This document shows positions 9,270 to 34,764 of a DNA stretch of 64,000 nucleotides, one piece after another. The position numbers were made by a program, and so were the translations under genes. A model generated the notes under the pieces. The model was not told where the DNA came from. It did no database searches and saw nothing but the letters and a program-made list of their open reading frames with translations. How positions within the stretch are numbered: the first letter of the stretch is position 1; every line of letters starts with the position of its first letter. Source of the stretch: Candidatus Woesearchaeota archaeon (GTDB lineage Archaea > Nanobdellota > Nanobdellia > SCGC-AAA011-G17 > GW2011-AR17); assembly GCA_964411565.1 (NCBI GenBank), contig CAYPLB010000001.1, positions 180,757-244,756 on the forward strand. The letters run 5' to 3'.

Positions 9270-12200
9270 ATGATAATTAAAAGAGGTTTGTTGATTTTTG
9301 TAGTTCTATTTTTAGTAATTCCATTTGTTTTTGCTGCTAATGGATGTTGTGGAGAAACTGTTTCAGAAAATACTTGTGTTTATACTTCTGAAGAAAATTG
9401 TGATACTCCTTCATACTTTAATGAAAATGCACAATGTGAAGATACTAGTTTTTGTGGTGTTGGGTGTTGTGTTAAACCAGATGGTTTGTGTTCTGAAGGT
9501 GCTGGTGAATATTCTTGTGATGTTGTTGATGGTGAATGGACTGATGGAAGTTGTGATTCTTTAGATGCTTGTGAAAAAGTTTGTTGTGTTTATGGGGATT
9601 TTTATACATATAATACTGAAGGATATTGTGAAAATCTTTATGCACAATATGGAGGAGATATAGATTATTATGATGTGAACTCTGAAACCGAATGTTATGA
9701 AATGGAAAGACAAAGTAATCAAGGATGTTGTGTTACTGAAGATGGATGTAGTTATGTTAGTTTAGGTGAATGTGAAGTTGATGAAATTGATATGAGTACT
9801 GGATATGGTTTTTTTGAAAATGATTATTGTCATTATGTTGCAGGGGATTTGGAAGAAGGTGGATATGAAGCAGCAGCAATGTGTGATTGTGAATTAGATG
9901 AGGACTATTATGTTTGTGATAGTAGTGGACTGTATGTTTTAGAAGTTGATACTTGTGGTAATCAAGGAGATATTGTTGAAGAATGTAATTATCCAAGTTC
10001 AATTTGTTCAGAAAGTTCTGGTAAAGCAGAATGTATCTCAACAAGTTGTACAGAAACTTTTAGCTTTCCTGAAGATTCTGAATTTTCTAGATTTAATACT
10101 TACAAAGTTTATTATCAAGGTTTTGAATCTGAATTTGATTTTAAAGAAATTCAATTAGGGCAATCAAGAGAAAATGGAGAAACTTGGTGTATTTATGAAA
10201 GTCCAGTTGGAGGTTTTGCTGATAGAGTTGGAAGTAGACATTATGAGGCAATGTGTTATAATGGTGAAGAAATAATTAATCCATGTGGAGAAGCAAAAGA
10301 TAGAGATCAAGTTTGTGTTTCAAAATATGATAAGACTAATGAAGAATTTATTGGAGGTTGTGTTGATAATAATTATGATGACTACTATGGTGAAGATGCT
10401 ATAGTTGAAGGAATGGATACTTTAATTTATGTAGAACCTGTTAGTGAACCAGTTGAATTTGGAGCTGTTGAAGGAGAAGAAGGTGAAGTTGAAGAAGTTG
10501 ATGTTGATGATGAAGATTATGATCCTTTGTATTATCCTTATGGAGTTTCAACTGTTGCAACTTCTGGAAGTGACTACTGTTCTTTAGGAACTTTAGAATG
10601 TAATCTTTGGTATGCTGATAGATATGAAAGTTCTCCAGATACAGGTTGGGAACTTTATGGGAATGGAGTTTGTTTGAAACCTCATTTTGCTTTGACAGCA
10701 GCAGATTATTGTTCAGCAAGAGGAGATTGTGGTTTAGATTTAAATGTTATTGGAAAAAATGGTGGGACTAGTGGTTTTCAAATAACAAATTCAAGAGATA
10801 AAGTTGGTGATGCTTATGTAGGTTATGGATTTTTTGATAGAGATGATATTGGTTTTTTTACTTCTCCATTTATTAGTGATGTTTGGAGTGCAGTTTCTTC
10901 ATTATTGTTTGATAATGTACTTTTTGTTGGTGGTTGGGATGTTAACACAGGTGAATGGGATTGGATTTGGGAAAATCAAGTAGAAGTTTTTTATAATATT
11001 TTTGATATGTTTTTACCAGATCAGAATTCTGCTTCTACAACTCTTGTAAATTTGTTAATAAATTCAGAAATTGATGGTTCAGAAATTTTTGATGAAAAAG
11101 TTACTGATGAAAATTGTTTTGATATTGATGAAGCTCATGAAGGTGCATTTATGGAGCCAGATAAATGGGATTATTATTATCCAGTGTTTTTACAAGCTTT
11201 AGATTATAATACTTTTCAAAGAGGAAGTTTAGAAATAAATGATTTATATTGTAGGGAATACACTGCAGATAGTATTGAAGGATTATATTATTTAAGTAAA
11301 CAAGATTTTATGGGAGATTTGTTTGCAAGAAATTATATGGTAGGAAGATTCTTTTCATTTTATGATTTAGTTTTACACTCAACTTCATTTTTGCCAAGTG
11401 AAACTGAGTATGATGAAGTTTATGATATTATAGAAAGTGAAATTTGTAGAGATTCTGGACAAAGGTTTAGATCTTTATCTAGAGGTTTAGGTTTTAATAT
11501 TGAAACTGGTGAAGGAAATGCAAATTCTGAAATGCCTCAAAATGTTAGAGATTTAAATGTAGATTTATCTGTAGATAAAAATTATGGAGAACTAAATTTA
11601 GATCTATACACAAACTTTAGAAGTATTAAACCATGGTATGTTAGTAGTCAACATTTAGAATCTTCTTTGGAAGGAATATATAAAGTAGGTATGCCATTGA
11701 AGTCTTTAACATTTTATACAGGACAAATTGGTTGGTGTGGTGATAATAGTGAATTTGAAGCTGCTGGTGATGAAGGAAAAGAAATGGTTACAAAATCTTT
11801 TACCTGTGGTGCTTGGGAGCCTCCGGCTGGTGGTGATGATTGTCATCTTTGTGATACTTTAATGTCAGAGGGTGGTTTGGTTTATGATAAAGGTGATAAA
11901 GTTTATACTGGAACATTATGTAGTGAAGCTAGATGTGAAAGTTTAGGAGCAACTTGTGCATATATTGAAGAAAATAGAGAAGTTGCATTATATGATGAGT
12001 CAAGACCAAGTTGTATTGATGGAGGAGATTGTAGTCTTATACAGGCTCCAATTAGAAGTGCTGATTTAGAATTGTTAGATGAGCAAGGTTTTATGTATGA
12101 AGAAAGTGAGAATGGAACTAGATTAACAGATCTACCTGTAATGGAAACTTTTAAGTTTGCTTTGGAAGTTGATCCTGTTTCAAATTGTAAGTTTGTAAGT

Positions 12201-13292
12201 GAAGATGATCTTCCAGAAGATTGGACAACAAATCCTGATGCTGTAACTTATGAATCTTTAAGTTCAACAGTGCCATTAAGTGGTTATACAAATTATCATA
12301 ATTTTACTTGGCATGTAGATGAAGCAAATTATGTACAAAGGTTTTATGTGAGTTGTAAAAATTATTGTGGTGAAGAAAATTTAGATTTCTATTTAGTAGA
12401 ATTTGAAACTGGAGATGGTGAGAATATTAGTCCGCCAGTAATACAAACAACTTATCCTTTGGATGGAGAGTTAATACAATCTGATAGTGAAGAAGTTGAG
12501 TTGAAACTTTATTTGAATGAATATGCAGATTGTAGATATTCTGAGAATGCTTATACTGATTATGATTTAATGGAAAATGATTTTTTGTATTGTGATAATT
12601 CGTATAGTGGAGAAAGTTCAGGTTTAGGTTATCCAATTTGTTCAACTAATATTGATCTAAGTAATGGCTCTGCAAATCTTTATTTATTGTGTAAGGATAC
12701 AGAAGGGAATGCAATGACAGAACCACAATCTTGGGGAGTTTCAAAAACTGAGCCTTTGTTAATTTCACAAACAGCTCCATCAGGAGATTTATATTATAGT
12801 GAAGTGACTATGCAAATTTATACTACAAATGGAGGAGATAGTGGGAATTCTATTTGTTCGTTTAAAGAAGAAGGAAGTTCATATTATGTTGACATGGAAA
12901 ATTCTTATACTAATTATCATGAGCAAATTTTTACAGATTTAGCAGAAGGTAGTTATAGTTATTCAGTAAGTTGTGAAGATGAAGTTGGTAATGTTGTTGA
13001 AGGAACTGTGGAGTTTAATGTTGTTGTAGATAGAAGTGCATCAGAGATTAGTGGTTTGTATTATTTAGGAACTACATTATATATTATTACAGATGAAGCT
13101 GCAACTTGTCAATATGATGATGAAAGTTTTTCATATGGTTCTGGAACTGAAACTGCTGGTTCTGGAAGTACAGATCATACTATTGCTGTAGAAGATGGAG
13201 GGAATTATTATATTAATTGTGAAGATGAATTTGGTAATCAAATGGATGAAGTTGTGATCAATTTAGATTATTTTGTGTCTAATTCTATATAG
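9270..13292 (+). CDS. large secreted Cys-rich protein, paralog 1
   Basis: Signal peptide; N-terminal CC repeats; GETWC/VGSRHY, GDCG and CxAW.PP motifs shared with 14974 and 19259; C-terminal Ig-like repeats. Confidence 0.85.
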   Translation: MIIKRGLLIFVVLFLVIPFVFAANGCCGETVSENTCVYTSEENCDTPSYFNENAQCEDTSFCGVGCCVKPDGLCSEGAGEYSCDVVDGEWTDGSCDSLDACEKVCCVYGDFYTYNTEGYCENLYAQYGGDIDYYDVNSETECYEMERQSNQGCCVTEDGCSYVSLGECEVDEIDMSTGYGFFENDYCHYVAGDLEEGGYEAAAMCDCELDEDYYVCDSSGLYVLEVDTCGNQGDIVEECNYPSSICSESSGKAECISTSCTETFSFPEDSEFSRFNTYKVYYQGFESEFDFKEIQLGQSRENGETWCIYESPVGGFADRVGSRHYEAMCYNGEEIINPCGEAKDRDQVCVSKYDKTNEEFIGGCVDNNYDDYYGEDAIVEGMDTLIYVEPVSEPVEFGAVEGEEGEVEEVDVDDEDYDPLYYPYGVSTVATSGSDYCSLGTLECNLWYADRYESSPDTGWELYGNGVCLKPHFALTAADYCSARGDCGLDLNVIGKNGGTSGFQITNSRDKVGDAYVGYGFFDRDDIGFFTSPFISDVWSAVSSLLFDNVLFVGGWDVNTGEWDWIWENQVEVFYNIFDMFLPDQNSASTTLVNLLINSEIDGSEIFDEKVTDENCFDIDEAHEGAFMEPDKWDYYYPVFLQALDYNTFQRGSLEINDLYCREYTADSIEGLYYLSKQDFMGDLFARNYMVGRFFSFYDLVLHSTSFLPSETEYDEVYDIIESEICRDSGQRFRSLSRGLGFNIETGEGNANSEMPQNVRDLNVDLSVDKNYGELNLDLYTNFRSIKPWYVSSQHLESSLEGIYKVGMPLKSLTFYTGQIGWCGDNSEFEAAGDEGKEMVTKSFTCGAWEPPAGGDDCHLCDTLMSEGGLVYDKGDKVYTGTLCSEARCESLGATCAYIEENREVALYDESRPSCIDGGDCSLIQAPIRSADLELLDEQGFMYEESENGTRLTDLPVMETFKFALEVDPVSNCKFVSEDDLPEDWTTNPDAVTYESLSSTVPLSGYTNYHNFTWHVDEANYVQRFYVSCKNYCGEENLDFYLVEFETGDGENISPPVIQTTYPLDGELIQSDSEEVELKLYLNEYADCRYSENAYTDYDLMENDFLYCDNSYSGESSGLGYPICSTNIDLSNGSANLYLLCKDTEGNAMTEPQSWGVSKTEPLLISQTAPSGDLYYSEVTMQIYTTNGGDSGNSICSFKEEGSSYYVDMENSYTNYHEQIFTDLAEGSYSYSVSCEDEVGNVVEGTVEFNVVVDRSASEISGLYYLGTTLYIITDEAATCQYDDESFSYGSGTETAGSGSTDHTIAVEDGGNYYINCEDEFGNQMDEVVINLDYFVSNSI

Positions 13293-14973: not shown

Positions 14974-17900
14974 ATGTATTTAAATAAAATAAACATGAAA
15001 GAAAATATGCAAAAGAGGTTTGTGAAAGAGAAAGCTTTGCTTATGATATTTCTTATAGTAACTTTATCTTTTACAATTGCAAATTTTGAAGAAGTAAAAG
15101 CAGATGGAAATGTTTGTTGTGAATATACTAGTAGTGGAGATACTTGTGTTTATACTGATGAAGATAATTGTGATGGAGGAAATGCAGTAAGTACAAGTTG
15201 TGAACAAACTTCTTATTGTGAAGTTGGTGTTTGTGTTTCTAGTGAAGGTAAGTGTTCTGATGGGGTTGCAAAAACAACCTGTGAAAGTTTAGATTATGAA
15301 TGGCATGAAGGTTCAAGTTTGGATTATGATGTTTGTCAAAAAGAATGTTGTGTAATTGCTGAGTATCAGTGTTCTTATACAACAGAAGATCATTGTGGAT
15401 ATTTAATTGAAGATTTAGAAGATATAGAATTAGATTGGAGAGATGTAGATTCTGAAGCTGATTGTTCTAATATTTGTAGAAGTAGTGATAAAGGTTGTTG
15501 TGTAACAAGTGACTCTTGTAGTTATACAACTTATGGATTATGTGAAGATCCTGATATAGATTTGAATACAGGTACAGGTTTTTATGAAGAAGAATATTGT
15601 GCTGATTTAGGTGCATGTGCTTGTGTTTCACATGATACAAAAAGATGTGTAGATGAAGATGTTTATTGGTTTGATTCTTGTGGTAATCAAGAAGATGTAG
15701 CTGAGGATTGTGATTATCTTTCAAGCACTTGGTGTAATTATGATGAAGAAGAAGATGATTATATTTGTGATGATATAAATTGTGATGAAACTTTTGATGG
15801 AGTTTATACTATAGATGGTGTAGAAACTCAAAGAAACCCTCATGATGAAAGAATTGGTGGAGAAAGAGAACATGGAGAAAGTTGGTGTTTATATGAAAGC
15901 CCAGCTGGAGGATGGTTTGATAGGCCTGGTTCTCAACATTATAGAAGTTTTTGTTATTTTGGTGAGGAAATTATTGAACCTTGTGTAGATTATAGAGAAA
16001 GTGTTTGTATACAATATCCTTATACAACAACAAATAATTATACTTTAATGAATCCTTTTGAAGAATGGGGTTTAACTTTAGGGGATGATTATTCTAGTAC
16101 TATTTCTGAAGCTGGTTCAGCATGTATAGATAATGGTATATATCAAAATTTGATTAATGCAAATGTAACAACAGTTCCAAAAGGTAGTAGTTTGTCAAGT
16201 GAAAGTACCGATGAGGAAGGTACTTGTTCAAGTGGTAATCAGGAATGTCTTGTAACTTTTGGAAAAGATTCTAGATTTGGAGAGTGGCATTGTTATGATA
16301 ATTGTTATTGTTTAACTCCAGAATGGGCAGATCAAGCTGCAGGTTTTTGTGCAACTCAAGGAGATTGTGGAGCAAAATATAATTTAGCTGAAGAGTTTGT
16401 AGGAGATGGATTTTATATTACAAAGTCTCATGGTTATGCTGGTGGGTTTGATGATGATTCTGGAGAAGTTGAACATAATAAAACTTTGATCGGTTATGAT
16501 TTGAATTGTGTAGAAACTTGGTCAGTGCCTGGAGAAAATTCTGATCCTGAATGTACAAAATATTGTAAAGATGGAGAATCTGAAAATTGTTATTTTATTG
16601 ATGAAATGAGAGAAGAAGTTCAATTAGAATTGAAAGATGAGTATGGAGTATATGGTGGCTTAGTAGGTTTTTCACAGAGTATGGGTGAATATATAGCAAC
16701 TGAGCAAAGTCCAGGTTTGTCAACAGTTGGTGCTATTGCTATTGGAGCAGGTGCAGGTTTAGTTGCTGGTTTGGCTTTTTCAGCAGTAGCTGCAACAGTT
16801 GCTGTTGCTGCAGCTGGAGGAGGTTCAGTTTTAGTTGGAACTGGAACACTTTTTGCTGCGGGTATTTCCAATTTGATTCCTTATGTTGCTGGAGTTGGTT
16901 CTGTTCTTGGTCCAATTGGATGGGTTGTTGCTGGGGTTATTATTGTAATTGCTGTTATTGTAACATTAATTGTTGGTGGAGGTGAAGCGATTGAGATTAC
17001 AGTTTCTTCACATTGTGAAGCTTGGCAAGCACCAAGTGGTTTAGATTATTGTGAACTTTGTGATGTTGCTGTTTCAGATGGTGGTTTGGCTATTGATAAT
17101 AGTGAAGGAGATATTTTAAGAGGTTGGGAATGTACTGAGTATAAATGTAATAGTTTAGGTCAAACTTGTGAATATATTGAAGAAAATGTTGGAACTGAAA
17201 GAGCAATGTGTATTAGTGTTGCTACTAATGATGTGAACCATCCTGTAATTGAAGATGCTTATTTGTTAGGTAATTATAAGAATTTAGATGTGGAGTTTGT
17301 TAAAGATGATTATTTGAAAGTTAATGAAAAAATTGCACCTTATACTTTTTTTGAATTTGGAATTGAATTAGATGAAGTTGGTCAATGTAAAATTGAATAT
17401 GAAAGTTTACATGAGACTTATGAAGAAATGGATTTGTATTTTCCTGATTCATATTATGATTATGTTCATAATCAAAGTTGGATTTTAACTCCTAATGAGG
17501 TTTATAATTTTTACGTAAGGTGTCAAGATCATAATGCTAATTATAATATAGATGCATTTGTAATACAAGTTGAAACAACTGGAGGAGATGATATTACTCC
17601 ACCAAGTATAGATGCAACAAGTGTAAATAATGGAGCTTTTATTGCAAGTGGAGTTAATGAAACTGATGTAAGTTTATTTATGGACGAACCTGCAAATTGT
17701 AAGTGGTCGTTTAGTGATGCTGATTATAGTCTAATGGAATATTATATGAGTTGTTCTGGAATACCAGAAACTGCAAGTTCATTATTTGAAAATGAATGTA
17801 CTGCATTGTTGAATGTTTCATATGGAAATAATTATTATTTCTTTGCTTGTGAAGATGCAGCAGGAAATGCAAACACAGAAAATCATGCTTTTACTTTAGT

Positions 17901-18390
17901 AGGGACAGATCCTTTAGGTTTAGATTATGCTTCACCAAATGGAACTATATATTATGATTATACAACAATAAGTGCAGGAACTTCTGGAGGTGCTTATGGA
18001 GATGGAAAAGCTGTTTGTTCATATGATGGTATTGAATTTTTTACAACAAATACTTCAGTACATAGTCAAAATTTAGAAGATCTAGAAGCTGGAGATTATA
18101 ATTATAATATAGTTTGTAGTGATATTGCTGGTAATTCAAATTCAACAGAAATTAGTTTTACTATTGCTGTTGATAGTGATGCACCTGAATTAAGTGGTTT
18201 ATATTTAATTGATACAACTTTGTATTATGAATTAAATGAAGATGCTACATGTGAGTATTATTTTGAAGAATTTGATTATGGTGAAGGAACAAGTGTTGCA
18301 GGTTCATTTACATTAACGGAATTAAGTTCATATTATTTAATTTGTGAAGATGTATTTGGTAATCAAGGGGAGTTTGAAATTAGAGTTTAA
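14974..18390 (+). CDS. large secreted Cys-rich protein, paralog 2, with internal hydrophobic hairpin
   Basis: Same scaffold as paralogs 1 and 3; ~85 aa Gly/Ala/Val/Ile segment at ~16726-16983; true start may be 14995 or 15007. Confidence 0.85.
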   Translation: MYLNKINMKENMQKRFVKEKALLMIFLIVTLSFTIANFEEVKADGNVCCEYTSSGDTCVYTDEDNCDGGNAVSTSCEQTSYCEVGVCVSSEGKCSDGVAKTTCESLDYEWHEGSSLDYDVCQKECCVIAEYQCSYTTEDHCGYLIEDLEDIELDWRDVDSEADCSNICRSSDKGCCVTSDSCSYTTYGLCEDPDIDLNTGTGFYEEEYCADLGACACVSHDTKRCVDEDVYWFDSCGNQEDVAEDCDYLSSTWCNYDEEEDDYICDDINCDETFDGVYTIDGVETQRNPHDERIGGEREHGESWCLYESPAGGWFDRPGSQHYRSFCYFGEEIIEPCVDYRESVCIQYPYTTTNNYTLMNPFEEWGLTLGDDYSSTISEAGSACIDNGIYQNLINANVTTVPKGSSLSSESTDEEGTCSSGNQECLVTFGKDSRFGEWHCYDNCYCLTPEWADQAAGFCATQGDCGAKYNLAEEFVGDGFYITKSHGYAGGFDDDSGEVEHNKTLIGYDLNCVETWSVPGENSDPECTKYCKDGESENCYFIDEMREEVQLELKDEYGVYGGLVGFSQSMGEYIATEQSPGLSTVGAIAIGAGAGLVAGLAFSAVAATVAVAAAGGGSVLVGTGTLFAAGISNLIPYVAGVGSVLGPIGWVVAGVIIVIAVIVTLIVGGGEAIEITVSSHCEAWQAPSGLDYCELCDVAVSDGGLAIDNSEGDILRGWECTEYKCNSLGQTCEYIEENVGTERAMCISVATNDVNHPVIEDAYLLGNYKNLDVEFVKDDYLKVNEKIAPYTFFEFGIELDEVGQCKIEYESLHETYEEMDLYFPDSYYDYVHNQSWILTPNEVYNFYVRCQDHNANYNIDAFVIQVETTGGDDITPPSIDATSVNNGAFIASGVNETDVSLFMDEPANCKWSFSDADYSLMEYYMSCSGIPETASSLFENECTALLNVSYGNNYYFFACEDAAGNANTENHAFTLVGTDPLGLDYASPNGTIYYDYTTISAGTSGGAYGDGKAVCSYDGIEFFTTNTSVHSQNLEDLEAGDYNYNIVCSDIAGNSNSTEISFTIAVDSDAPELSGLYLIDTTLYYELNEDATCEYYFEEFDYGEGTSVAGSFTLTELSSYYLICEDVFGNQGEFEIRV

Positions 18391-18429: not shown

Positions 18430-19191
18430 ATGAGAAAAAGAGGACAGTTAACTTTGTTTATAATTTTAGGTATTGTATTAATTGTGTTAATTGCTTTATA
18501 TTTTGTAGCAGTTAAAACTGAAATTATTCCACCATTGTTAACTCCTAGTGATGCTAATTCTGAAATGAATGAAATTGAAGAACATATTGAAGATTGTTTA
18601 AAAGCTGTTGGAATGAATTATCTTTATATCTTAGGACAGCAAGGTGGTTATTTGAATCCTGGTGAAGATACATATAGAATGTTTAATGATTCTATGATTA
18701 GTTATCTTTGTTGGAATCAAGAGAATAGTCCAACTTGTACAAATAGATTACTTACACTAAATAAAATGGAAGAACAGTTAGAAGATGCTGTTGATGATGC
18801 TTTGCAAACTTGTATTAATGTTTATGATTATAGTAAAGATGTTGAAGCTAATGATGATTGGGAATTAGATGTTACAATAAATTATTTTAATGTAGATTTT
18901 GATTTAAATTATCCTGTGTCTGTAGATAAAGGTGAAGATGATAGTGCGTCTGAAGATGAGTTTGGTTATGAAGCTGATGTGGCTCTTGGAGAAATTTATG
19001 AAGTTAGTCAAGATATTGTTAACCAACATGCTTCACTTGGAGACTTTGATCAGTTGTTGTATATGCTTTCAAAATTAAGTCGGTATACAATCTATAAAAA
19101 TAGACCTTATCCAGATGTTGTTTATCAAGTTAAGTTAAGAGAGAAAGCTTATGTGTTCCAGTTTGGAATTCAAGGTGAAGAAAATGTGTAA
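18430..19191 (+). CDS. class III signal peptide (pilin-like) protein
   Basis: MRKRG/QLTLFIILGIVL: basic residues, G/Q, then a hydrophobic helix. Confidence 0.8.
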   Translation: MRKRGQLTLFIILGIVLIVLIALYFVAVKTEIIPPLLTPSDANSEMNEIEEHIEDCLKAVGMNYLYILGQQGGYLNPGEDTYRMFNDSMISYLCWNQENSPTCTNRLLTLNKMEEQLEDAVDDALQTCINVYDYSKDVEANDDWELDVTINYFNVDFDLNYPVSVDKGEDDSASEDEFGYEADVALGEIYEVSQDIVNQHASLGDFDQLLYMLSKLSRYTIYKNRPYPDVVYQVKLREKAYVFQFGIQGEENV

Positions 19192-26000: not shown

Positions 26001-28438
26001 ATATAAATCCTTCAAATGTCACATTAAATGTAGGAGAATCAGCAACTATTTCATGGGTTGTAAATGCTACAGGTGATGCAAATGTTACTCATGTGTTTTT
26101 TGCATTTGCAAATAAAACTGCAGATATGACTGTAAGTAATATAACTGGACTTTGGAATGTTTCAGTTGTTAATGTTACTGTTGGTGATTTAACTGCTCCT
26201 GTAATTACAATTGAGTCTCCTTCAAATAATACTTTTACTACAGATACAAATATATTTGTAAATTATTCTGCTGTTGAAGCAGTGAATATTTCTTCTTGCT
26301 GGTATAGTAATGGTACTATGGAAGTAAATTACACATTAGATAATTGTGCAAATATTACTGATGTCACATGGAGTGAAGGAGAACATACTGTTAATATTTG
26401 GGTGAATGATACTTCTGATAATTTAGATAATTCAAGAGTTACTTTTACAATTGATACAATTTATCCAACAATAAATATTAGTTCTCCAGAAAATAATTCT
26501 TTGAGTGGGAATTCTACAACAAATATTATCTATTCAGTTTCAGATACAAACCTAGATTCTTGTTGGTATAGTAATGATAGTTTAGGTGTTAATTATACTA
26601 TAACAAGTTGTGCAAATATTTCTGATGTAACTTGGATTGAAGGAAATAGGAATGTTACAGTTTGGGTAAATGATAGTGCTGGTAATGAAAATAAATCTTC
26701 AATAATTTTTTCAATTGATATTACAAAACCTTCAATTAATATTAGTATTCCTGTAAATAATTCTAATACTACTAATCAAAATTTAGATGTTATCTATAGT
26801 GTGTCAGATTTGAATTTAGATTCTTGTTGGTATAGTAATGATACAATGAGTGTTAATTATAGTCTTGAGTCTTGTGCAAATATTACTAATCTAATTTGGA
26901 ATGTTGGAAATCATAACTTAACTGTTTGGGTGAATGATACTGTGAATAATGTGAATAGTAGTTTAATTGTATTTGAAATCTTAGCAGATTTGGATAATGA
27001 TGGTTTTTTAGATGATATTGATCCTTTAAGGTATAATGAAACAAATGTTACTAAATCTGGAATTACTTTGTTGAATATTACTGTAGGGGGAAATAGAACA
27101 AATGAAACTTATTCTGGTTCACATGTTGTAAAATTTTATGATGAAAATACTTTAATGATAAATTTTAGTCATAACTTTAGTAGTAATAATCTTGATTTAA
27201 GCAAAGTTACTATTGATAAAACAGATACAAGTTTAATTGTAAATCTTTCAGGGCAATTACAAGGTAATAAAACTTTATTTATTAATGATAATAATTTTGC
27301 TAGTTTGTGTGTGAAAGATGGTGAAGTATCTTCAATAAGTGAAGTTAGCTCTGGATGTAATGAAGCAAATGAGACTGATTTAACAAATTGTTTAGGTGGA
27401 AGTTTATCTAGTAACGGTATTGAATGTGTTGATGAAGGAAATATAATTAAAATTAGTAATTTAATGTATTCAGCTATTAGAGGAACTCAAGCTTCTTCAG
27501 ACTCTTCTAGTTCAAGTACTAGTGGAGGAGGAGGAAGTAGTAGTTTTATTAGTTTAAGTCAAACTTGTAGTCTCGAGAGTGATTGTGAAGATAATGAAAT
27601 TTGTTTAGATGAAAAATGTGTTCAAGTTGATTGTAAGTTAGATGAAGACTGTAGGGAAAAACAATATTGTTTTGGAAATGAATGTTATGATTATGAATGT
27701 TATAGTAATACTGATTGTAATTTAGAGGAAGGAGAAAGTTGTAGAGAAAATATATGTGTTAAATTATTTGATATAGTTATTGAAAGTTTTAATTCCTCTG
27801 TGAATGTTGGAGATTTTTTCCATTTTACTTATTTCTTAAAAGGGATGGCTGATATTAGTGATGATGTAGAAATAGAATTTTGGATATCTGATAATGGGAC
27901 AATTTTGAGTGAAGGAAAAGATACAATTTATGTAGGGAGTTTTGAGGAAATTACAAATGAAGGAGAACTTTTATTACCAACAACTTTAGAATCTGGAGTT
28001 TATTTATTTTATATCAAAGTTAGGTACTTAGACTATAGTGCTGATTCCTATAGAACTATTGAAATAGATGTTAAAGATGATGGAACTGTTGAAATTATAG
28101 AGGTTGAAGAAAAAGAAGATAGTTCTGTTTTAGGCTTTGTTGTTTTAGGGTTTTTATTGATGTTAGTAGTTTTCTTCTATAAATTAAATGATAGTAGGGA
28201 TACTTTGTATGAAGAATTAGAAAGACAAAAAATCTTGATTAAAAAATTAAGAAAAGAGAGATTTAAGAAAAAAGAATTGAAAAAGAAAAAGAAGAAGAAA
28301 AAGAAAATTAAAGGGGCTATTATTTCAAAGAAAGAGATGTTAAAAGACTCTACTAAAATTAAAACTGATGAAGGAAGATTGCTGATAAAAGGGTTACTAA
28401 AAAAAGTCTTAGAGAAAAAAAATAATGATAAAAAGTAA
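23042..28438 (+). CDS. giant membrane-anchored adhesin-like protein (PQQ-type beta-propeller plus Ig-like repeats)
   Basis: Signal peptide, WRMYG and SPAV.DG.VY PQQ-like repeats, three SCWYSN/VWVND repeats, many NxS/T sequons, Ser/Gly linker, Cys-rich module, TM and poly-Lys tail. Confidence 0.85.
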   Translation: MKRGSLGLLLLLLIILSCVNFVFADSNSLDATEWRMYGRYLNNTRYTTSSAPENISAATIITKTAADNVYASPAVVDGYVYVTDYDTLYKLDAANISIVDDSRSITYGSTASSPLIVGESVYFSYNTVIYQYNKSDFTHLIGSETRTRTSTGIIEYNGAIYSGGWNDRNVYQLNSTDIDNAINVYYNPYRCSNFPAIYEDKLFLQCNQYTYVLNASDVTQVLQSKYISSALFAGQAVMIAEGSVYLAYDDDTIYQMNVSNISHQISSFTASAAFDGGMGYRAGFIYAGNRNDRIYQLNASNISIQYANYTAGGDVTSAPALTDQYLFIGSSDEYLYQLNVSNVSKLINRYFTDAAVYAAPVVADGAVYVGTGYPYKFYQFGIPNIPSINTNSPTDNFAAAAPPVDVNFSCTATDDSGLSNISFFLSDENTENLALNQTTLLSGTSNTTTWVVTLNDGVYSWTCQAGDNENNTKLGSTKTVNVDSDLPTYTMNSPDADWVNDSWDPINVVFNCSSTDNVGLSNISLYLTDSTNSSFAVNQTTTVSGTSGSAEWELDLPKGNYTWACFTTDSVNNINRSVNRSITANYSDTVVPTFSDIANMTIIQGNNVSLDINATDDFSFACFSVNDTTNFQIDCDGSLSNKTYLDTTLYNLNITINDTYGNQVSDLMWVNITPRPQIGFSLVTPTGNINVTQNTTFTVTVEVTCLNADCGEINVSLDPKPIGEEEEETASILSSLSLTDTKSFVYDIQDGCDISDGHADVFDGGLRLYIDNSEYTGTRSSTEESGREAVCNGQTKSSLNVSRKVFVPSDQNWARYLDILENPTDSEICVDVKVYQNMGSDGSDFMNTSDGDTTWETTDHWMMWDDSSASAGDDAAGFIYQQDGSTEVIDSLTPSTASGGYNQWIWEEVCIGAGQTEILMYFFTQWDTRAQSIAEADVIYTNYNNDVHKEGMSDLEVSQIVNWQMSGVSKSGLISTTVGDTPFYTTNINPSNVTLNVGESATISWVVNATGDANVTHVFFAFANKTADMTVSNITGLWNVSVVNVTVGDLTAPVITIESPSNNTFTTDTNIFVNYSAVEAVNISSCWYSNGTMEVNYTLDNCANITDVTWSEGEHTVNIWVNDTSDNLDNSRVTFTIDTIYPTINISSPENNSLSGNSTTNIIYSVSDTNLDSCWYSNDSLGVNYTITSCANISDVTWIEGNRNVTVWVNDSAGNENKSSIIFSIDITKPSINISIPVNNSNTTNQNLDVIYSVSDLNLDSCWYSNDTMSVNYSLESCANITNLIWNVGNHNLTVWVNDTVNNVNSSLIVFEILADLDNDGFLDDIDPLRYNETNVTKSGITLLNITVGGNRTNETYSGSHVVKFYDENTLMINFSHNFSSNNLDLSKVTIDKTDTSLIVNLSGQLQGNKTLFINDNNFASLCVKDGEVSSISEVSSGCNEANETDLTNCLGGSLSSNGIECVDEGNIIKISNLMYSAIRGTQASSDSSSSSTSGGGGSSSFISLSQTCSLESDCEDNEICLDEKCVQVDCKLDEDCREKQYCFGNECYDYECYSNTDCNLEEGESCRENICVKLFDIVIESFNSSVNVGDFFHFTYFLKGMADISDDVEIEFWISDNGTILSEGKDTIYVGSFEEITNEGELLLPTTLESGVYLFYIKVRYLDYSADSYRTIEIDVKDDGTVEIIEVEEKEDSSVLGFVVLGFLLMLVVFFYKLNDSRDTLYEELERQKILIKKLRKERFKKKELKKKKKKKKKIKGAIISKKEMLKDSTKIKTDEGRLLIKGLLKKVLEKKNNDKK

Positions 28439-28476
28439 GAGTTAATTTTATAAAGTTTCTTTGGTTGTTTATATTT

Positions 28477-28971
28477 ATGAAAAGAGGTCAGATTCTAGGT
28501 GTTCCTTTAGTGTTATTGTTTGCATTAATTGTTGGTGCTTTAATTTTAGCTTATGGAGCAAAAGTTGCAATTGATTTGGTTAATGAAGCAGATTATATTG
28601 ATTTTTTGGATAGTATGTCAGATTTAGAAAATAATATACAAACATTTTCTCATTATGATGAAGGTTCTTCAAAAGTTTATGATATAGATTTACCTACTGA
28701 TGTTGAAGCAGTTTGTTTTTATAATGATGGGAAGGATTTTGATTGTACTCTTGATGGTGAAATCTGTGATGAAATTTTAGAAGGGACTTTAGATCTATTG
28801 GTTGAGAGTAATTTTAATGTCTATGTTTATCCAAATAATGCTTTTGATCAGACAAGATTAAATATAGAAGATTTTGAAACTGAAGCAGGAAATCCTGAGT
28901 GTATATCAAATGGACATTCATTATTAATAACTGCTTACAGTGATTATGTAGGATTAACTTATTATGAATAA
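28477..28971 (+). CDS. class III signal peptide (pilin-like) protein
   Basis: MKRG/QILGVPLVLLFALIVG; TATA box 22 nt upstream supports the 28477 start. Confidence 0.78.
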   Translation: MKRGQILGVPLVLLFALIVGALILAYGAKVAIDLVNEADYIDFLDSMSDLENNIQTFSHYDEGSSKVYDIDLPTDVEAVCFYNDGKDFDCTLDGEICDEILEGTLDLLVESNFNVYVYPNNAFDQTRLNIEDFETEAGNPECISNGHSLLITAYSDYVGLTYYE

Positions 28972-29962
28972 AAAAGCACAAATGTCCTCACCATTTAGTT
29001 ATATTTTTGCTTTAATAATTGGGGGAATAGTGTTTATGTTTTTAATTGGTTTTGCTTACAAATTTATTGCTTTGTCTGGTGCATTAGGAGCAGCTGAAAC
29101 TGTTTCAGCTTTGAATGATGAGTTTGCAGCTTTTTCTGTTTCTGAGTCAGCAGAGAAAGTAATTAATTATGGAAGTAGTTTTGATTTTACAGTCTTTGAA
29201 GGAGAGTTAAGAAGTGGTGGGCAAAGTAAAAGTATAGATCATATTATTTTTTCTCCTTATGAAATTCAAGGGAAAGATTTGTATGCAGCAACGCGTTCTT
29301 TAGAATTGCCATATAGAGTTGGAAATTTATTTTATTTGTCAGATGGAAGTGTTGTTTATATTTTAGTTTATGATTCAAATTCTGAGGAAGTAGTTGAAGA
29401 ATTAATTGATTCTTATTCTGCAATTCCTAGTAATTTTCCTAGAGAAGCTTTTTCAATTACACAAGTTTCTTCTAACATAGGAGAACTTAGTCAGTTAACA
29501 GCATCATATAGTCAAGTTAGGTTTGTATTCTTTACATCTTATGATAATGTTCTTGATGATATCCAAAGTAATTTTGAAAATTATGAAATTTTAAAAGTTG
29601 AATCTTCTGATGAAGAATATCTTTATGGACAAGTTGAATATTCTGATGGTGAAGAAGTTGTTTATTTAGGATATCCTTTGTTGATAGGTGCAATTATTTC
29701 TTATGGTGCTACAGGTTATGAATATAATTTTGATTTAGTTATGGAAAAGTTGTCGTCAATAACTAATGTTTATTATGATAAATCTAAATTTGTTTCTGCA
29801 AGAAAACCAGAGTGTGATTATAATTCTATCAAAACAACTTTGAATAATTATAAATCTTTAACAAATCAAGATGAAGTTTCATATAGTAGTTATGCTACAA
29901 AAATTGAACAAGTTGAAAATGCTAATGATGGTTTAGGAGGTGATTGTCCTGAAGTTTTCTAA
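28964..29962 (+). CDS. class III signal peptide (pilin-like) protein
   Basis: MNKKA/QMSSPFSYIFALIIG. Confidence 0.78.
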   Translation: MNKKAQMSSPFSYIFALIIGGIVFMFLIGFAYKFIALSGALGAAETVSALNDEFAAFSVSESAEKVINYGSSFDFTVFEGELRSGGQSKSIDHIIFSPYEIQGKDLYAATRSLELPYRVGNLFYLSDGSVVYILVYDSNSEEVVEELIDSYSAIPSNFPREAFSITQVSSNIGELSQLTASYSQVRFVFFTSYDNVLDDIQSNFENYEILKVESSDEEYLYGQVEYSDGEEVVYLGYPLLIGAIISYGATGYEYNFDLVMEKLSSITNVYYDKSKFVSARKPECDYNSIKTTLNNYKSLTNQDEVSYSSYATKIEQVENANDGLGGDCPEVF

Positions 29963-30452
29963 AGGTCAAATACAAATGATGGAAACACTGATGGTTGCAG
30001 TAGTTTTTATGGTTGTATTAATTGTAGCTTTAGCATTTTATTTTAAGTTCTCATTAGAAAGTATGGAAGAAAGTGGACAAGAAGCTTGTTTAGTTTCAAA
30101 TACTGTGTTGTTGGCATCAGTAAGTTCAATGGCAGAGATACAATGTAGTATCGATGGGAAAACTGAAAATTGTATTGATACTTCAAAATTAATTGTATTT
30201 GATCCAGGTAGAACTTATGGAAGTATGTTTACAACAAACTGTAACCAAAGAGTTTATTTTGAACAAGTATATCCAGAACCGGAAAATGGAACTTGTGATC
30301 AAAATAATTATCCTGATTGTACACAATTTGTGTTTTATGATCCTGATGTAAGTTATAGCTCAACAATCAAAATATCTACACCAACAAGTTTATATTTTCC
30401 GTTAACAGAGGAATATAAATTTGGAAAGTTAGTGATAGAGGTGCTTTTATGA
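29940..30452 (+). CDS. class III signal peptide (pilin-like) protein
   Basis: SKG/QIQMMETLMVAVVF followed by a Cys-containing globular domain. Confidence 0.75.
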   Translation: MIVLKFSKGQIQMMETLMVAVVFMVVLIVALAFYFKFSLESMEESGQEACLVSNTVLLASVSSMAEIQCSIDGKTENCIDTSKLIVFDPGRTYGSMFTTNCNQRVYFEQVYPEPENGTCDQNNYPDCTQFVFYDPDVSYSSTIKISTPTSLYFPLTEEYKFGKLVIEVLL

Positions 30453-30871
30453 AAAAAGGACAAATGGAAATAATAGGTTTTATGGTAATTATTCTTTTGC
30501 TATTGTTTAGTTTAATCTTTTACTTTAAGTTTGCATCAAATGATTCAAGTGATTTATTGCAAGAGGCTGAAGAAAATTTAGAAGTTTCAAATTTAATTGA
30601 TGCAATAAAAATGTATACAGTATGTGAAGATACTCAAATGAATGATGTGATTAAATCATGTATAGATGGTGGGAATGAATGTGATGAAGATTCTTGTGGA
30701 ATTGTTGAAAGAGAAGTCCAACAAATTGTTTCTTTAAATGGTTGGGAGAATGATTCATATATGTTTTATATAGGAGAAGTATTATATTCTCAAGGGACTT
30801 GTAAAGGTAATACTTTTGTAGATGATTACATAACTAATGGTGAAACAGTAAGATTAGTTTATTGTTACTGA
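30449..30871 (+). CDS. class III signal peptide (pilin-like) protein
   Basis: MKKG/QMEIIGFMVIILLL. Confidence 0.8.
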   Translation: MKKGQMEIIGFMVIILLLLFSLIFYFKFASNDSSDLLQEAEENLEVSNLIDAIKMYTVCEDTQMNDVIKSCIDGGNECDEDSCGIVEREVQQIVSLNGWENDSYMFYIGEVLYSQGTCKGNTFVDDYITNGETVRLVYCY

Positions 30872-31050: not shown

Positions 31051-31145
31051 AAGGTTTATAAGGAGTTTTTATTTGTTTATGGTTAACTGTGTTTATACTT
31101 CCTAGTTTAGGAAGAGGGAGTAGTTTATTTTTTACACAGGAGGTG
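31051..31145 (+). promoter_or_regulatory. S-layer promoter, 5' UTR hairpin and Shine-Dalgarno site
   Basis: AAGGTTTATAA at 31051; hairpin CTTCCTA-gtt-TAGGAAG at 31098-31114; AGGAGGTG at 31138-31145. Confidence 0.65.
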
Positions 31146-31154
31146 TTGTATAAC

Positions 31155-33503
31155 ATGAAAAAAGATTTTTTAAGAAAGACCATCAAAAAGATGGCAGCGA
31201 TTGGTACTGGTGTTGCAATGGTAGGTGCGACATTAACAGGGGCAATGGCTTTGGACTTAGCAGATTACCCATCTCCTTATGTTGTTGATGGTGTTTATGA
31301 CGACACAACAGCATTTGTTGTTGGTGATCAAGCGTCCGCAGCTGATTCTTTAGGAGTAGCTGATGTAGTTAGTGGCTTACAATTTGAATCAAAAGTGGCT
31401 ACTAGTGAAGCAGGAACTACAGTTTCAGTTGAAGGTGGTAAGACAGAAAAAGTACCTCTAGGTTCTGGTTTGACAGCGTCTTCGTTGTTTGACACAACTT
31501 TGCAGGATGATGATGTTTCCAGTTTCTGGGATGGAGAAATTACTTTCCAAGGATCTAGTTATGATACATCAGAAGAGTTGCAAATGGAAACAACAACAGA
31601 CCCAGTTATGGCAACAAGTCTAACAAGTTCTGAAGATGATTACAAGACAGATGTTTATATGGAAGTTGTAGCAAGAGATGTAATTAAGTTTGCATATAAG
31701 TTTGATGAAACTATCAACCTAACTTCTGCTTCAACAACACAGCCTCTGACACTAGATTTCTTAGGTAATACTTTGAAAATCACAACAGTACCTCTTGCTG
31801 GAACTCAGTTTACAGCTTATGTTGGTGAAGAACACTATTTATCTGTAGATGAAACTGCTGAAGTTGAAGTTGATGGTGTAATGAGAACTGTAACTTTAAC
31901 AGATGTATCTAGTTCTTCAGCTGTAGTAGATGTAGATGGTGTGAGTGAAATTATTTCTGATGACTCAACTGAAACTGTTAATGGTGTAGAAATTACTGTT
32001 GACGAAGTTTTTAGTCGAACTGAAAGAGATGAATCCTCAGCAAACCTGATCATTGGTAAAGAATCTTCTGAAACATATAAAGATGGAGATGCTTACATCG
32101 GTGAAGACAAAGATGATCCAAATTGGGTATGGGATATTGCAGGACTTGAAACACAAGGTACAAGTCAAACTTTTAGAGTTGAAAACGATTTCTTGTATAA
32201 TGACTTAAATGATGGTGGACCAGCTATTGGAGACTGTATTGAATTACCAAATGCTTATGTTGAAATTTGTGTAGACAGTTTAACAGTTGCTGATGCAGAC
32301 TATGCAGTTTATACAATGGAATTTGATTCCTCAACAGACTTTACAGATGCTGGTTTGAACACTACATATAGTGCAGTACCTTCTATCTATTGGCACACAA
32401 GTGTTGATGAAGGATTCGACTTGCAAGCATACACAACTGGTGGAGCTGCATATGCAAACGAAACAGCTGCAAAGAAGACCAAAGAAGTTTGGCTATACAA
32501 GAGATCTGACACTGGTGGTGGAGGTTTAATCAACGGATCCGATACTAACAAAGGAGAAGGTTTTGAGTCTGACTGGTTAGCAGTTCTGTATAAAGATGCT
32601 GGAACATCTAAAATTAAGTTATTTGGATATATTGCAACAAACGCATCTACAGAAATTGTAAGAATTAACTATGGAAACACAAAAGATACAAATCTTGTAT
32701 TGAAAACATCAACAGGTTATGCAACTGACTTTGGTGAGCAAGGATTAAACTTTACCTTGGAAATCAAAGGAGATTCAACAACTGACCTAGCAAATGATGT
32801 GGACGATATGGTATTCTTCTGGGGTCTTGATGTAGACAATGGTTCTATTGATAGTCTTGGTGCAACAGCATCTAGTGAAGAAGCTCTTGAAATCAAGTGG
32901 GGTGGATCAAACACAACTCTTGGTACAAAAGATGAAGACCATAGAACAAGATACGGTATCGTTTTGGAAAATCCAAAGTCAAATGGTGCAAGTGATCAGA
33001 TCGAGATGAAGATTCCTCAAGATCAGGTAATGGCAAATGTTGTTATCAAGGGAAGTTCAACAACTGTAACTAGTGGTTCATCAAGTTACACCTCTCAGGA
33101 AATTTCTCCTGTGACTAAGTTAGCTTCAGAAATTAGTTCTGCAAGTACATATAACTTAATCATTGTAGGTGGACCTTGTGCAAACGACTTAGTTGAAGAT
33201 GTGTTTGATCTGACTTGTGATGGTTGGGACCTTGAAGAAGGAGAAGCTATGCTAAAGTTAGTTGAAAATGGTGACAATGTAGCTCTATTAGTTGCAGGTA
33301 CTGTAGCTGATGATACAAGAAGAGCAGCAAAGGCACTAGCTGGATACTCAATGTATGACTTGTCTGGAGCTGAGGTAAAAGTAAGTGGAACAAGTGTTGA
33401 CGATGTAAATGTTGGCACATTAGATGTTGCTGAAGCTGAAGAAGAAGTAGCTGAAGAAGAAGCAGCAGAAGAAACCACTGAAGAAGAAACCACAGAGGAA
33501 TAA
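31155..33503 (+). CDS. major S-layer protein
   Basis: IKKMAAIGTGVAMVGATL signal, DLADYPSPYV, VVG..A.AAD and C-terminal NLIIVGGPCAN...LLVAG..A.DTR; strong SD site; more C-ending codons than neighbouring genes. Confidence 0.9.
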   Translation: MKKDFLRKTIKKMAAIGTGVAMVGATLTGAMALDLADYPSPYVVDGVYDDTTAFVVGDQASAADSLGVADVVSGLQFESKVATSEAGTTVSVEGGKTEKVPLGSGLTASSLFDTTLQDDDVSSFWDGEITFQGSSYDTSEELQMETTTDPVMATSLTSSEDDYKTDVYMEVVARDVIKFAYKFDETINLTSASTTQPLTLDFLGNTLKITTVPLAGTQFTAYVGEEHYLSVDETAEVEVDGVMRTVTLTDVSSSSAVVDVDGVSEIISDDSTETVNGVEITVDEVFSRTERDESSANLIIGKESSETYKDGDAYIGEDKDDPNWVWDIAGLETQGTSQTFRVENDFLYNDLNDGGPAIGDCIELPNAYVEICVDSLTVADADYAVYTMEFDSSTDFTDAGLNTTYSAVPSIYWHTSVDEGFDLQAYTTGGAAYANETAAKKTKEVWLYKRSDTGGGGLINGSDTNKGEGFESDWLAVLYKDAGTSKIKLFGYIATNASTEIVRINYGNTKDTNLVLKTSTGYATDFGEQGLNFTLEIKGDSTTDLANDVDDMVFFWGLDVDNGSIDSLGATASSEEALEIKWGGSNTTLGTKDEDHRTRYGIVLENPKSNGASDQIEMKIPQDQVMANVVIKGSSTTVTSGSSSYTSQEISPVTKLASEISSASTYNLIIVGGPCANDLVEDVFDLTCDGWDLEEGEAMLKLVENGDNVALLVAGTVADDTRRAAKALAGYSMYDLSGAEVKVSGTSVDDVNVGTLDVAEAEEEVAEEEAAEETTEEETTEE

Positions 33504-33540: not shown

Positions 33541-33575
33541 AAATTTTTTTAAGTAAAGGAATATTCTTAGTTAAA

Positions 33576-34154
33576 ATGAAAAGATCATATCATAAAATAA
33601 ATAAAGTAGCTTTTTATAAAAATAAAAAGTTTTTTACAATACTTATGGGATTATTTTTGATTATGTTAATGGCCTTAGGTGCTGTCAATGTAGGTATGAA
33701 TAATGATGATGATAAAGTTGAATATAATGGTTTAGAGTTTGTTGAAACAGATGGAGGATGGAGAGCTAATTTAGAAGATGAAAGTGAAATTTATTTGATC
33801 TTTAATCCTGGAGAATTAGAAATTGAAGAAGAATTTTCAGTAAGTTTTAGTTCATTATTGAATTCAGAGAAAGTATATTTTAGTTATGATCCTTCAAAAG
33901 AATCTCAATATGCTATGTATGATTTAAGTAGAAATTTTAATTTTAATAAAATAGTTTATTCCTGTTATGAGGACAGTGATTTATGTACAGAAATGCCTTT
34001 AAAAACCTGTGATGATGCAAGTCTTGATGTTGGAGTTGTTATTTTTAAAGTGGGTGAAGAGAATAAAGTAAGTTTTGAAGATAATTGTTTAAGTATAGAG
34101 GGGAAAAGTTTATTAAATGTAGTAGATAAACTGATTTTAGATTATTATGGTTAA
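33576..34154 (+). CDS. membrane-anchored hypothetical protein (paralog of the next gene)
   Basis: N-terminal TM; PLKTCDD...KV...NC..I.G motif. Confidence 0.75.
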   Translation: MKRSYHKINKVAFYKNKKFFTILMGLFLIMLMALGAVNVGMNNDDDKVEYNGLEFVETDGGWRANLEDESEIYLIFNPGELEIEEEFSVSFSSLLNSEKVYFSYDPSKESQYAMYDLSRNFNFNKIVYSCYEDSDLCTEMPLKTCDDASLDVGVVIFKVGEENKVSFEDNCLSIEGKSLLNVVDKLILDYYG

Positions 34155-34764
34155 GAAAAAAGATAATATGGGGATTGTTTTAGGAGTACTAATTGGGATT
34201 TTATTACTTTCTATGATTTATGTTTTTACAATGGATGATGGTGTTGCTGAAGATATTTATAAGTATACAAATGGGAATACTGTTTTTGAAGTTTACAAAT
34301 ATAGTGATACTGAAACTTATATTACAATGTTGACTGGAGCTTATGAAGAAGAATATACTTTAGGATTAAGGACAGATCCTTTGTCTTTAGAAGATATTCC
34401 TGTTACTGGAACTTTGCATACTAGAATTTATAATGATGAAATAGTTTATGTAACAATTGATCCTTATGCAAATTTAACTGGACAAACTGTTATTGCTGCT
34501 TTAGAAGTTGACAAAGTAATTGATAATGAATATTTATATCAAGTGCCTGTTGTAAGTGCAATGACAAGAGAATATGGAGATTATCCAGTTAAGACTTGTG
34601 ATGATGGTACTGATACAGAAACTATTGTTTATCTTACTCTAGGAGATGAAACTAAAGTTTATACTTATAATAATTGTATTATTATTATGGGTACAGATGA
34701 AGGTGAAATTATCAGAGCAGCAGATAGAATGGTTTATACTTTATTAGGTATTATGCAACAATGA
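34147..34764 (+). CDS. membrane-anchored hypothetical protein
   Basis: N-terminal TM; PVKTCDD...KV...NC..I.G motif. Confidence 0.75.
   Translation: MVKKKDNMGIVLGVLIGILLLSMIYVFTMDDGVAEDIYKYTNGNTVFEVYKYSDTETYITMLTGAYEEEYTLGLRTDPLSLEDIPVTGTLHTRIYNDEIVYVTIDPYANLTGQTVIAALEVDKVIDNEYLYQVPVVSAMTREYGDYPVKTCDDGTDTETIVYLTLGDETKVYTYNNCIIIMGTDEGEIIRAADRMVYTLLGIMQQ

Follow-up and report, generated by a model that had tools for sequence, protein, structure and literature searches.

Minor-pilin-like genes and giant cysteine-rich surface proteins form a conserved gene cluster, a candidate type IV filament module, in a Woesearchaeota archaeon

The sequence analysed here, referred to as the window, is a 64,000-nucleotide stretch of a Candidatus Woesearchaeota archaeon genome (G000:C1:180757-244756, on contig C1; the assembly has 1.007 Mb in 19 contigs and is 100% complete by marker genes). 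Positions 9270-34764 of the window are filled by 15 co-oriented open reading frames (ORFs), called with a simple script, all on the plus strand and named A to O (Table 1). Three giant cysteine-rich paralogs (A, E and G), the pilin-like gene F and the four pilin-like genes I-J-K-L probably constitute an accessory or tip module of the type IV filament of this lineage. The evidence comes from class III signal motifs, from linkage of these genes across the class, and from fusion of F to the core of the giants in sister orders. I-L most likely behave like conserved core minor pilins and F like a pilin-like module that belongs to the giant, with the giants themselves as cargo or adhesin. Close homologs are labelled Woesearchaeota, Nanoarchaeota or Nanoarchaeia, and marine and seawater metagenomes of two studies contain DNA of this genome.

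A preliminary description of this stretch had seen a co-oriented block with three giant Cys-rich paralogs, five pilin-type genes, a propeller and immunoglobulin-like (Ig) protein and an S-layer gene. It placed one pilin-type gene (F) between the second and third Cys-rich paralogs and the other four (I-L) in an overlapping operon, and the ORFs bear out all of this. It was also right that nearly all of the products are exported, the exceptions being B and the MNT/HEPN-like pair C/D. The ORFs were called naively, transmembrane (TM) segments were assigned by hydropathy only, and the pilin class was assigned by motif and hydropathy.

F, I, J, K and L all have an N-terminus in which [KR][GA] is followed by Q and then by a hydrophobic stretch of ~20-30 residues. 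Among the 1008 ORFs of at least 100 aa in the genome, 205 have an N-terminal hydrophobic region, 42 have [KR][GA] just ahead of it, and in 9 the next residue is Q. Five of these nine fall within 12.4 kb of the 1.007 Mb, where ~0.1 would be expected; the other four are three relatives of F or of the pilin cluster and a gene of 388 aa that lies 2.2 kb away from that of the prepilin peptidase. K[RK]G alone was rejected as a mark of class III signals, since at least 15 ordinary Sec-type signal peptides start with MKRG, including those of A, G and H. In this genome, MKRG followed by L, V, I, Y, S or F and by a ...SA/...FA site is an ordinary Sec signal. The requirement of Q after K[RK][GA] made in the preliminary description is therefore correct, and K[RK]G alone (the n-region of an ordinary Sec signal) would mislead. 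F and I-L all have a basic leader ending in G/A and a hydrophobic helix, with no site of the signal peptidase I type, which is the pattern of a class III signal. Every row of the order-level ortholog alignments keeps Q6 in F, the Glu in K, and the Q and E in L, and at loci of other orders the I-L ORFs carry the same class III motifs near their starts.

The genes I-J-K-L overlap by 8, 23 and 4 nt. I and J share their first ~77 residues (hhalign probability 95%), J being a distant paralog of I, and K and L share ~41 residues (hhalign probability 84%). The sole match to curated pilin N-terminal models is that of K to NF007660 (E 0.0028, 18 bits, cut-off 86); these models are aids built for other lineages and do not define the class. 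Sequence profile searches of the PDB with K, L and J gave nothing at E < 0.01, and K weakly touched three pilin N-terminal helices (E 0.29-1.1). For the F, giant and I-L families as a whole, no curated cut-off was reached and no solved structure was matched significantly, except for an Ig-like domain hit in G. A complex prediction for I+J+K+L (mature chains, own alignments, L as partner) scored 0.62, 0.63 and 0.62, and two partner-replaced controls scored 0.00 and 0.00. A control in which J was replaced still scored 0.47; the score is therefore not specific to chain J and gives no evidence either way on binding.

In public gene calls, K and many of its relatives have lengths of 153-160 aa, and the K of the window itself is stored as 158 aa. 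The stored length implies a start ~12 codons downstream (window 29940-29975), which loses the conserved SKG/QIQ leader. The K orthologs have an ATG at the upstream position. Truncated K calls would hide such pilins from signal-based screens.

A, E and G are paralogs: their N-terminal halves, like their C-terminal halves, are 27-36% identical (E 1e-37 to 5e-75). All three contain exactly 62 Cys, or 4.6-5.4% of their residues; the genome mean over the 1008 ORFs is 1.3%. A 50-sequence alignment of the giants has 37 invariant Cys columns and another 13 that are conserved in at least 90% of the rows. E is made up of N-terminal CC-repeat modules, a conserved core, a hydrophobic segment, a Cys knot and four Ig/fibronectin type III (FnIII)-like domains (aa 753-1138). 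Its AlphaFold2 (AF2) model has a predicted local distance difference test score (pLDDT) of 79.2, with small Cys-rich N-terminal modules, the core, a disordered hydrophobic stretch at aa ~577-668 and the C-terminal half. That C-terminal half matches solely tandem Ig/FnIII chains in the PDB, with Foldseek E down to 5e-12 and VIA Z 8-9.7; the whole-E fold search covered residues 753-1138 only, so that the CC-repeat region and the core were barely tested. The models thus predict four tandem Ig/FnIII-like domains in the C-terminal half of the giants, as in adhesins. No Pfam family lies above its cut-off in A, E or G, except Big_13, an Ig-like domain, in G.

Residues ~580-679 of E (window 16711-17010) form a Gly/Ala-rich hydrophobic stretch of ~95 residues between the ectodomain halves, where the confidence of the model is low. 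This segment is missing from A, and G has its two weak TM segments and charged loop instead. ORFs with at least 30 Cys number 14 genome-wide, and most of them do not adjoin pilin-like genes. The largest Cys count, 163, is that of a 2309-aa protein (C3:96428-103357), and most of the 14 have a hydrophobic, signal-like N-terminus. Giant surface proteins of the disulfide-rich kind are a feature of this 1-Mb genome in general.

Homologs of the E family are present in 36 of 41 related genomes of the order, usually in 2-4 tandem copies, and 11 loci were fetched, chosen for long contigs. These genomes are not independent samples, and general collinearity within the family inflates synteny. The giants (2-4) and F are present at all 11 loci. 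F lies at most 60 nt upstream of a giant gene, or overlaps it, in eight, and the other three have insertions between the two. Two of the contigs stop right after a G-type gene, which leaves nine that are informative for the downstream order. In these nine the giants are followed by I-J-K-L and then by the S-layer gene; J, K and M match in all of them, and I and L match in eight by BLAST, while in genome G029 unmatched pilin-like ORFs hold those positions. N and O come next in eight of the nine, and in G038 they are on another contig. Orthologs of A are found in G013 and G021. In G025, a genome of another family that consists of one contig, the order is F-giant-I-J-giant-MNT-HEPN-K-L-Slayer-N-O, and the giant and pilin gene sets are interleaved, not merely adjacent. 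Sixteen more genomes of the order have their best F match and their K match 5-21 kb apart on a shared contig, and many other assemblies break between them.

The linkage also extends outside the order. The sample comprised 201 genomes from the phylum, none of them more distant than members of the same class, and the K profile matches in 178 of them, mostly as a single copy. Twelve loci around K from other orders were selected for long contigs. I-J-K-L are collinear in all 12, and the ORF directly ahead of them encodes 884-2243 aa with 20-178 Cys. This adjacent giant is matched by the E/G profile in five of the loci, and a second, upstream giant in one more, and an F-like gene of 390-502 aa lies ahead of the giant in four. 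The profiles of M, N and O have no match at any of the 12. Conservation of the gene neighbourhood was the check proposed in the preliminary description, and it came out in favour of the module: giants, F and I-J-K-L are syntenic in 9/9 informative loci of the order, and giant-I-J-K-L in 12/12 loci of other orders.

Small genes 3' of L are a further feature of the other orders. In nine of the 12 loci there are 1-4 small ORFs of ~80-120 aa at this place, most of them with 6 Cys, followed by further pilin-like genes. Many of these small ORFs start like 'KAQGLSLNTIVIAALAL' ('KAQGLSLN...'). In the present genome the small-pilin profile matches C3:44373-44747 (E 1.5e-10) and its neighbour. Several genes of the C3:41-46.6 kb cluster have their matches beyond L at loci of other orders, and two neighbours among them have stayed side by side. 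The simplest reading of these comparisons is that there was one ancestral pilin locus, which would have been split in this order, with the distal half beside L replaced by the S-layer gene. The module is thus linked to major-pilin-like genes (9/12 loci), and no such linkage to ATPase or platform genes was found. Similar N-termini ('...VVSLPSKW...') occur at C2:81006-81890, C6:38097-39053, L045:5774-6622 and L049:14701-15606; these genes sit near the TadC gene, near an F paralog and inside pilin loci of other orders.

F connects the pilin-like genes to the giants. The F profile matches 191 of the 201 genomes, with 1-14 copies per genome, and outside the order many of the matches open frames of 900-1300 aa. 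Ten such long F-bearing ORFs were fetched, and all 10 have a class III helix, the F domain, a match to G ~300-540 and a match to G ~771-1060. They have a single N-terminal TM segment, without a hairpin and without the hydrophobic segment of E. This fusion in sister orders appears to be a Rosetta-stone link between F and the core of the giant. At E <= 0.001 the F profile has 8482 matches among 1.84 billion cluster representatives. The 150 best of these include 90 that are shorter than 300 aa and 49 of at least 850 aa with 36-53 Cys, and 137 of the 150 have [KR][GAS]Q in their first 40 residues. An ESM Atlas search with F gave matches confined to unnamed Nanobdellota clusters. The AF2 model of the first 560 residues of one fusion has a pLDDT of 81.9 and a predicted template modelling score (pTM) of 0.75, with F-domain block means of 83-98; the alignments behind the structure models are shallow (50-51 rows).

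F-giant pairs are found at three places in this genome, namely at the E-F-G locus, on contig C7 and elsewhere on C1. At C7:31837-36089 an F paralog of 271 aa overlaps by 4 nt the start of a secreted protein of 1146 aa with 58 Cys, which has no detectable similarity to A, E or G. At C1:70804-79328 (L030:7805-16329) a 662-aa F-like class III protein overlaps by 4 nt a secreted giant of 2179 aa with 55 Cys. This giant (C1:72789-79328) ends in a Peptidase_M15_4 domain, the VanY-type cell-wall peptidase (E 7.4e-17, above cut-off), which hints at a murein-bearing partner or prey. F is likely to be an adaptor or pilin-like module for the giant downstream of it.

The window itself has no A24 peptidase, T2SSE ATPase or T2SSF platform gene, as had been pointed out before, and the machinery would have to act in trans. 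It is encoded elsewhere in the genome. The single A24 peptidase gene is at C11:9497-10321 (PF01478 and PF06847), a T2SSE ATPase gene is at C1:84616-85827, and there is a second, PilT-like ATPase with a KH domain. The one T2SSF platform (TadC) gene found is at C2:86019-87461, next to a 414-aa ORF without a family match. Linkage of the genes in relatives and a peptidase and ATPase in the genome, on which the preliminary description had made its proposal depend, are thus both found.

From the observed motifs, paralogy, conservation, synteny, fusion and machinery genes we infer a mechanism that includes cleavage, filament assembly, a location at the tip, adhesion and possibly a host. The single A24 prepilin peptidase of the genome would process the class III signals of F and I-L, and these pilin-like proteins would then be loaded by the ATPase and TadC platform from their separate loci. 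I-L would prime and cap the filament, in the manner of the four core minor pilins in type IV pili of bacteria, and the filament would be built from the small Cys-containing major pilins that are encoded on contig C3 here and directly 3' of L in other orders. F would couple the giant, a Sec-exported, disulfide-rich protein with Ig domains, to the I-L complex. The giant may in this way be displayed beyond the S-layer as an adhesin, and the three divergent paralogs may provide different binding specificities.

Bacterial minor pilins of the FimU-PilVWXE type form a priming and tip complex with PilY1 (Pseudomonas aeruginosa, Myxococcus xanthus), and the role expected in both cases is to start the filament and to place an adhesin at the tip. 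The two arrangements are alike in that an overlapping operon of 4-5 pilin-like genes lies beside a gene for a large Sec-exported non-pilin protein, which in other orders of this phylum is the case at 12/12 loci. They are also alike in that the ATPase, platform and peptidase are encoded at other loci and the major pilin separately. Sequence and fold searches found no homology with PilY1 or with pilin families, whether bacterial or archaeal. PilY1 has a vWA domain and a beta-propeller, whereas the giants here are disulfide-rich Ig arrays that can carry their own TM hairpin; a PQQ-like propeller is present in H, which is not conserved. The present proteins further differ in being archaeal, in having Q at +1 of the signal, and in being fused to the pilin-like module in sister orders. 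By analogy, the module may work like a minor-pilin/PilY1 complex without being a member of that family.

The Epd pilus of Methanococcus maripaludis, a type IV filament (T4F) of system 1, is a close archaeal comparison. Its peptidase EppA prefers Q at +1, and Q at +1 and a dedicated A24 peptidase are both found here. The two are also alike in their KG/Q-type signals, in several minor pilins and in a major pilin that is encoded apart. The accessible part of one study describes several minor pilins (EpdA-D) as needed for piliation (PMC3875500). In the portions available of a 2026 survey (PMC13705601), the T4F genes of Nanobdellati are scattered, 1990 of their genomes encode Epd-like (system 1) pilins, and most Nanobdellati pilins are assigned to system 1. 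Unlike Epd, the present system has no PF04021 or PF07790 match and one T2SSF gene, and no giant Cys-rich partner or F-type domain has been described for Epd.

The fusions of sister orders resemble modular pilins such as Streptococcus sanguinis PilB and those of the CofB/TcpB type, in which, according to the sections available (PMC8179133, PMC5207764), a pilin-type N-terminus is followed by a large functional ectodomain. The fusions have the same layout but are much larger (~850-1350 aa) and Cys-rich with Ig arrays, and in the present genome the two halves are separate genes. A literature search found no paper on this cluster or on the F/giant fusion; S10 Fig and S4-S5 Tables of PMC13705601, a source seen in part, list T4F genes of Nanobdellati and may already name some of the genes.

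Several findings weigh against a filament module. Synteny within the order reaches the housekeeping flanks, with a methyltransferase downstream and the same conserved upstream ORF in four loci, and part of the order-level linkage may therefore be plain collinearity. PF04021 and PF07790 have no match in the whole genome at E <= 1, and Pfam and NCBIfam gave nothing significant for F or I-L (nor for N, O or B). The model of F plus core has no Foldseek match at E <= 1e-3 (best E 4e-3), and in VIA type IV pilins and pseudopilins reach Z 3.3-3.8, in 7 of 50 rows, where the best row has Z 5.9. One T2SSF gene was found, against two described for system 1. The ATPase and platform genes are not linked to the module here, and the platform gene, found in three of the five other-order genomes examined, is far from K in all three. 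This distance agrees with the remark in the available text of PMC13705601 that Nanobdellati pilins are scattered. E and G have their own hydrophobic hairpin and could stay membrane-bound rather than ride on a filament.

The hairpins and the unlinked machinery would both suit a membrane-anchored envelope complex, in which the class III-like N-termini are anchors, or build a short stalk of the pseudopilus or bindosome kind, that holds the giants in or through the S-layer. The module would then be a scaffold of the envelope, which in this order is tied to the S-layer gene. M has no TM anchor and is adjacent at all informative loci of the order, K is mostly single-copy and near-universal like a housekeeping part of the envelope, and archaeal class III signals are known on non-filament substrate-binding proteins (PMC13705601, in its accessible part). 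This alternative is possible but rather unlikely, given that M has no match at the loci of other orders, where small major-pilin-like genes mostly follow L, and given that the fused forms have an N-terminal helix only and A has no hairpin. Collinearity of the housekeeping flanks would also be expected if the genes were neighbours without a shared machine, the giants being independent Sec-exported adhesins or wall proteins, the pilins unrelated to them, and the adjacency a matter of co-regulation and inherited gene order. The many Cys-rich ORFs away from pilin-like genes and the giants of more than one family beside I-L, of which the E/G profile matches 5/12, would fit this as well. It appears quite improbable in view of the fusion of F to the giant core in every long ORF fetched and the frequency of long forms among the best F representatives. 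The interleaving in G025, the giant directly ahead of I at all 12 loci despite differing flanks, and the recurrence of F-giant pairs in the genome argue in the same direction.

The giants could also be envelope-breaching or fusogenic effectors that are delivered at a pilus tip to open the envelope of a host. The Gly/Ala-rich hydrophobic segment between the ectodomains of E and the Peptidase_M15_4 domain of the F-paired 2179-aa giant would be in keeping with this, as would the top VIA row for the core, which covers 51 residues of archaeal Fusexin1 (Z 5.9, root-mean-square deviation 2.2). A Z of 5.9 over 51 residues is, however, no higher than chance arrangements can give, A and the fusions lack the hydrophobic segment, which is different in G, and family and fold searches found no recognisable enzyme or fusogen domain in A, E or G. 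We regard effectors of this kind as very unlikely. Cytoplasmic bridges are seen in DPANN symbioses, and a class-wide device in which a tip of I-L and F presents giants that breach or fuse with the host envelope, and so start such bridges, is very doubtful. In such a device the Gly/Ala-rich segment of E would resemble a fusion peptide, and the F-paired 2179-aa paralog would contribute a peptidoglycan hydrolase domain. The probable reading is still that of an accessory or tip module. The tip complex displaying the giants that the preliminary description had proposed is partly supported, by the conserved unit, the F fusion, the small pilins 3' of L and the machinery in trans; H, the insert with the MNT/HEPN-like pair, the S-layer gene and N/O appear to be neighbours of it and not components. 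In particular, its view of the S-layer gene and the 1798-aa H as parts of one apparatus is not supported, as H is unmatched in the 11 loci and M is adjacent only within the order.

Table 1. Open reading frames at positions 9270-34764 of the window (coordinates are those of the window)
ORF	Position	Strand	Description	Family match or remark
A	9270..13292	+	Giant Cys-rich paralog 1, 1340 aa, 62 Cys, Sec-type signal peptide, no internal TM hairpin
B	13440-13898	+	Cytoplasmic protein	No family match
C	14035-14559	+	MNT-type nucleotidyltransferase	PF01909 and PF18765 matches
D	14550-14969	+	Small HEPN-like partner of C	No family match
E	14974..18390	+	Giant Cys-rich paralog 2, 1138 aa
F	18430..19191	+	MRKRG/Q class III-type N-terminus and 220-aa globular domain, 4 invariant Cys	Between E and G
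G	19259..22987	+	Giant Cys-rich paralog 3, 1242 aa, two weak TM segments either side of a charged loop
H	23042..28438	+	PQQ-like propeller/Ig surface protein, 1798 aa, C-terminal TM segment
I	28465..28971	+	Minor-pilin-like, MKRG/Q; likely true start is ATG at 28477
J	28964..29962	+	Largest minor-pilin-like protein, 332 aa, KKA/Q
K	29940..30452	+	Minor-pilin-like, SKG/QIQMME, invariant Glu, GTG start
L	30449..30871	+	Minor-pilin-like, KKG/QME, invariant Q and E, 6 Cys
M	31089..33503	+	S-layer protein, likely start is ATG at 31155	PF05124
N and O	33576-34154, 34147-34764	+	Paralogous pair, each with N-terminal TM segment and ectodomain

H has a PQQ-like beta-propeller at its N-terminus (PF13570, E 3.7e-17, below the model cut-off; PQQ_2, 27.5 bits against a cut-off of 27.6), together with weak Ig-like hits. 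It has no match in any of the 11 related loci of the order and was rejected on this ground as a conserved part of the module. H is probably an independent adhesin that was inserted in this lineage.

C and D appear to be an MNT/HEPN-like pair. D overlaps C by 10 nt and has no HEPN model match at E <= 0.1. The pair recurs in this locus in three genomes (the present one, G024 and G025; loci L012 and L017), each time at a different position and orientation, and C-like genes are also found in G032 and G037. Possibly it is a mobile addiction module with a preference for this region.

M is a Methanococcales-type S-layer protein with a Sec signal and an acidic C-terminus (PF05124, S_layer_C, 53 bits against a cut-off of 23.9). 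This likeness concerns M alone, and its adjacency to the pilin-like operon, behind a gap of 218-284 nt in the order, makes it a neighbour of the module in this order only. Contigs from RNA libraries (two runs of the same study as the possible source sample) cover M at 31085-33478, nearly end to end, and otherwise only 156 nt of E within the stretch; such contigs cannot show operons or levels, and the uncovered pilin-like genes need not be silent. A second S-layer paralog is found at window 42736-44730 (+), where the M-family profile matches with E 1.8e-134. Its C-terminal tail is hydrophobic and gives a weak T4SS_pilin/TM-like hit (aa 625-663). C1:52227-54059 holds a third copy, which is more distant.

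N and O belong to a family whose profile matches 188 of the 201 genomes, mostly as an adjacent tandem pair. In this window O overlaps a putative methyltransferase gene (34761-35351). In ten N/O loci of other orders (L053-L062), judged by N-terminal sequence only, putative MacB/FtsX-type ABC transporter genes lie beside the pair in at least four, and an ORF with an N-terminus like that of the putative methyltransferase in four. N and O were considered as S-layer anchors of the block, and this was rejected, since other orders place them tens to hundreds of kb from K. They appear to be a separate class-wide module.

How DPANN archaea find and hold their hosts is, to our knowledge, an open question, and we know of almost nothing on this point for Woesearchaeota-type lineages, which are without cultures. 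The cluster described here offers a concrete class-wide gene set for it, with four mostly single-copy minor-pilin-like proteins, an F domain with ~8,500 cluster representatives, and giant partners. Current pilin models miss these families. For archaea, the module is a candidate for the part that the minor-pilin/PilY1 tip complex plays in bacteria, and it exists in a natural fused form. What the tip of a DPANN pilus consists of, and which protein touches the host, become directly testable questions. Should the module prove to be an envelope scaffold and no more, it would still be a new conserved part of the DPANN cell surface.

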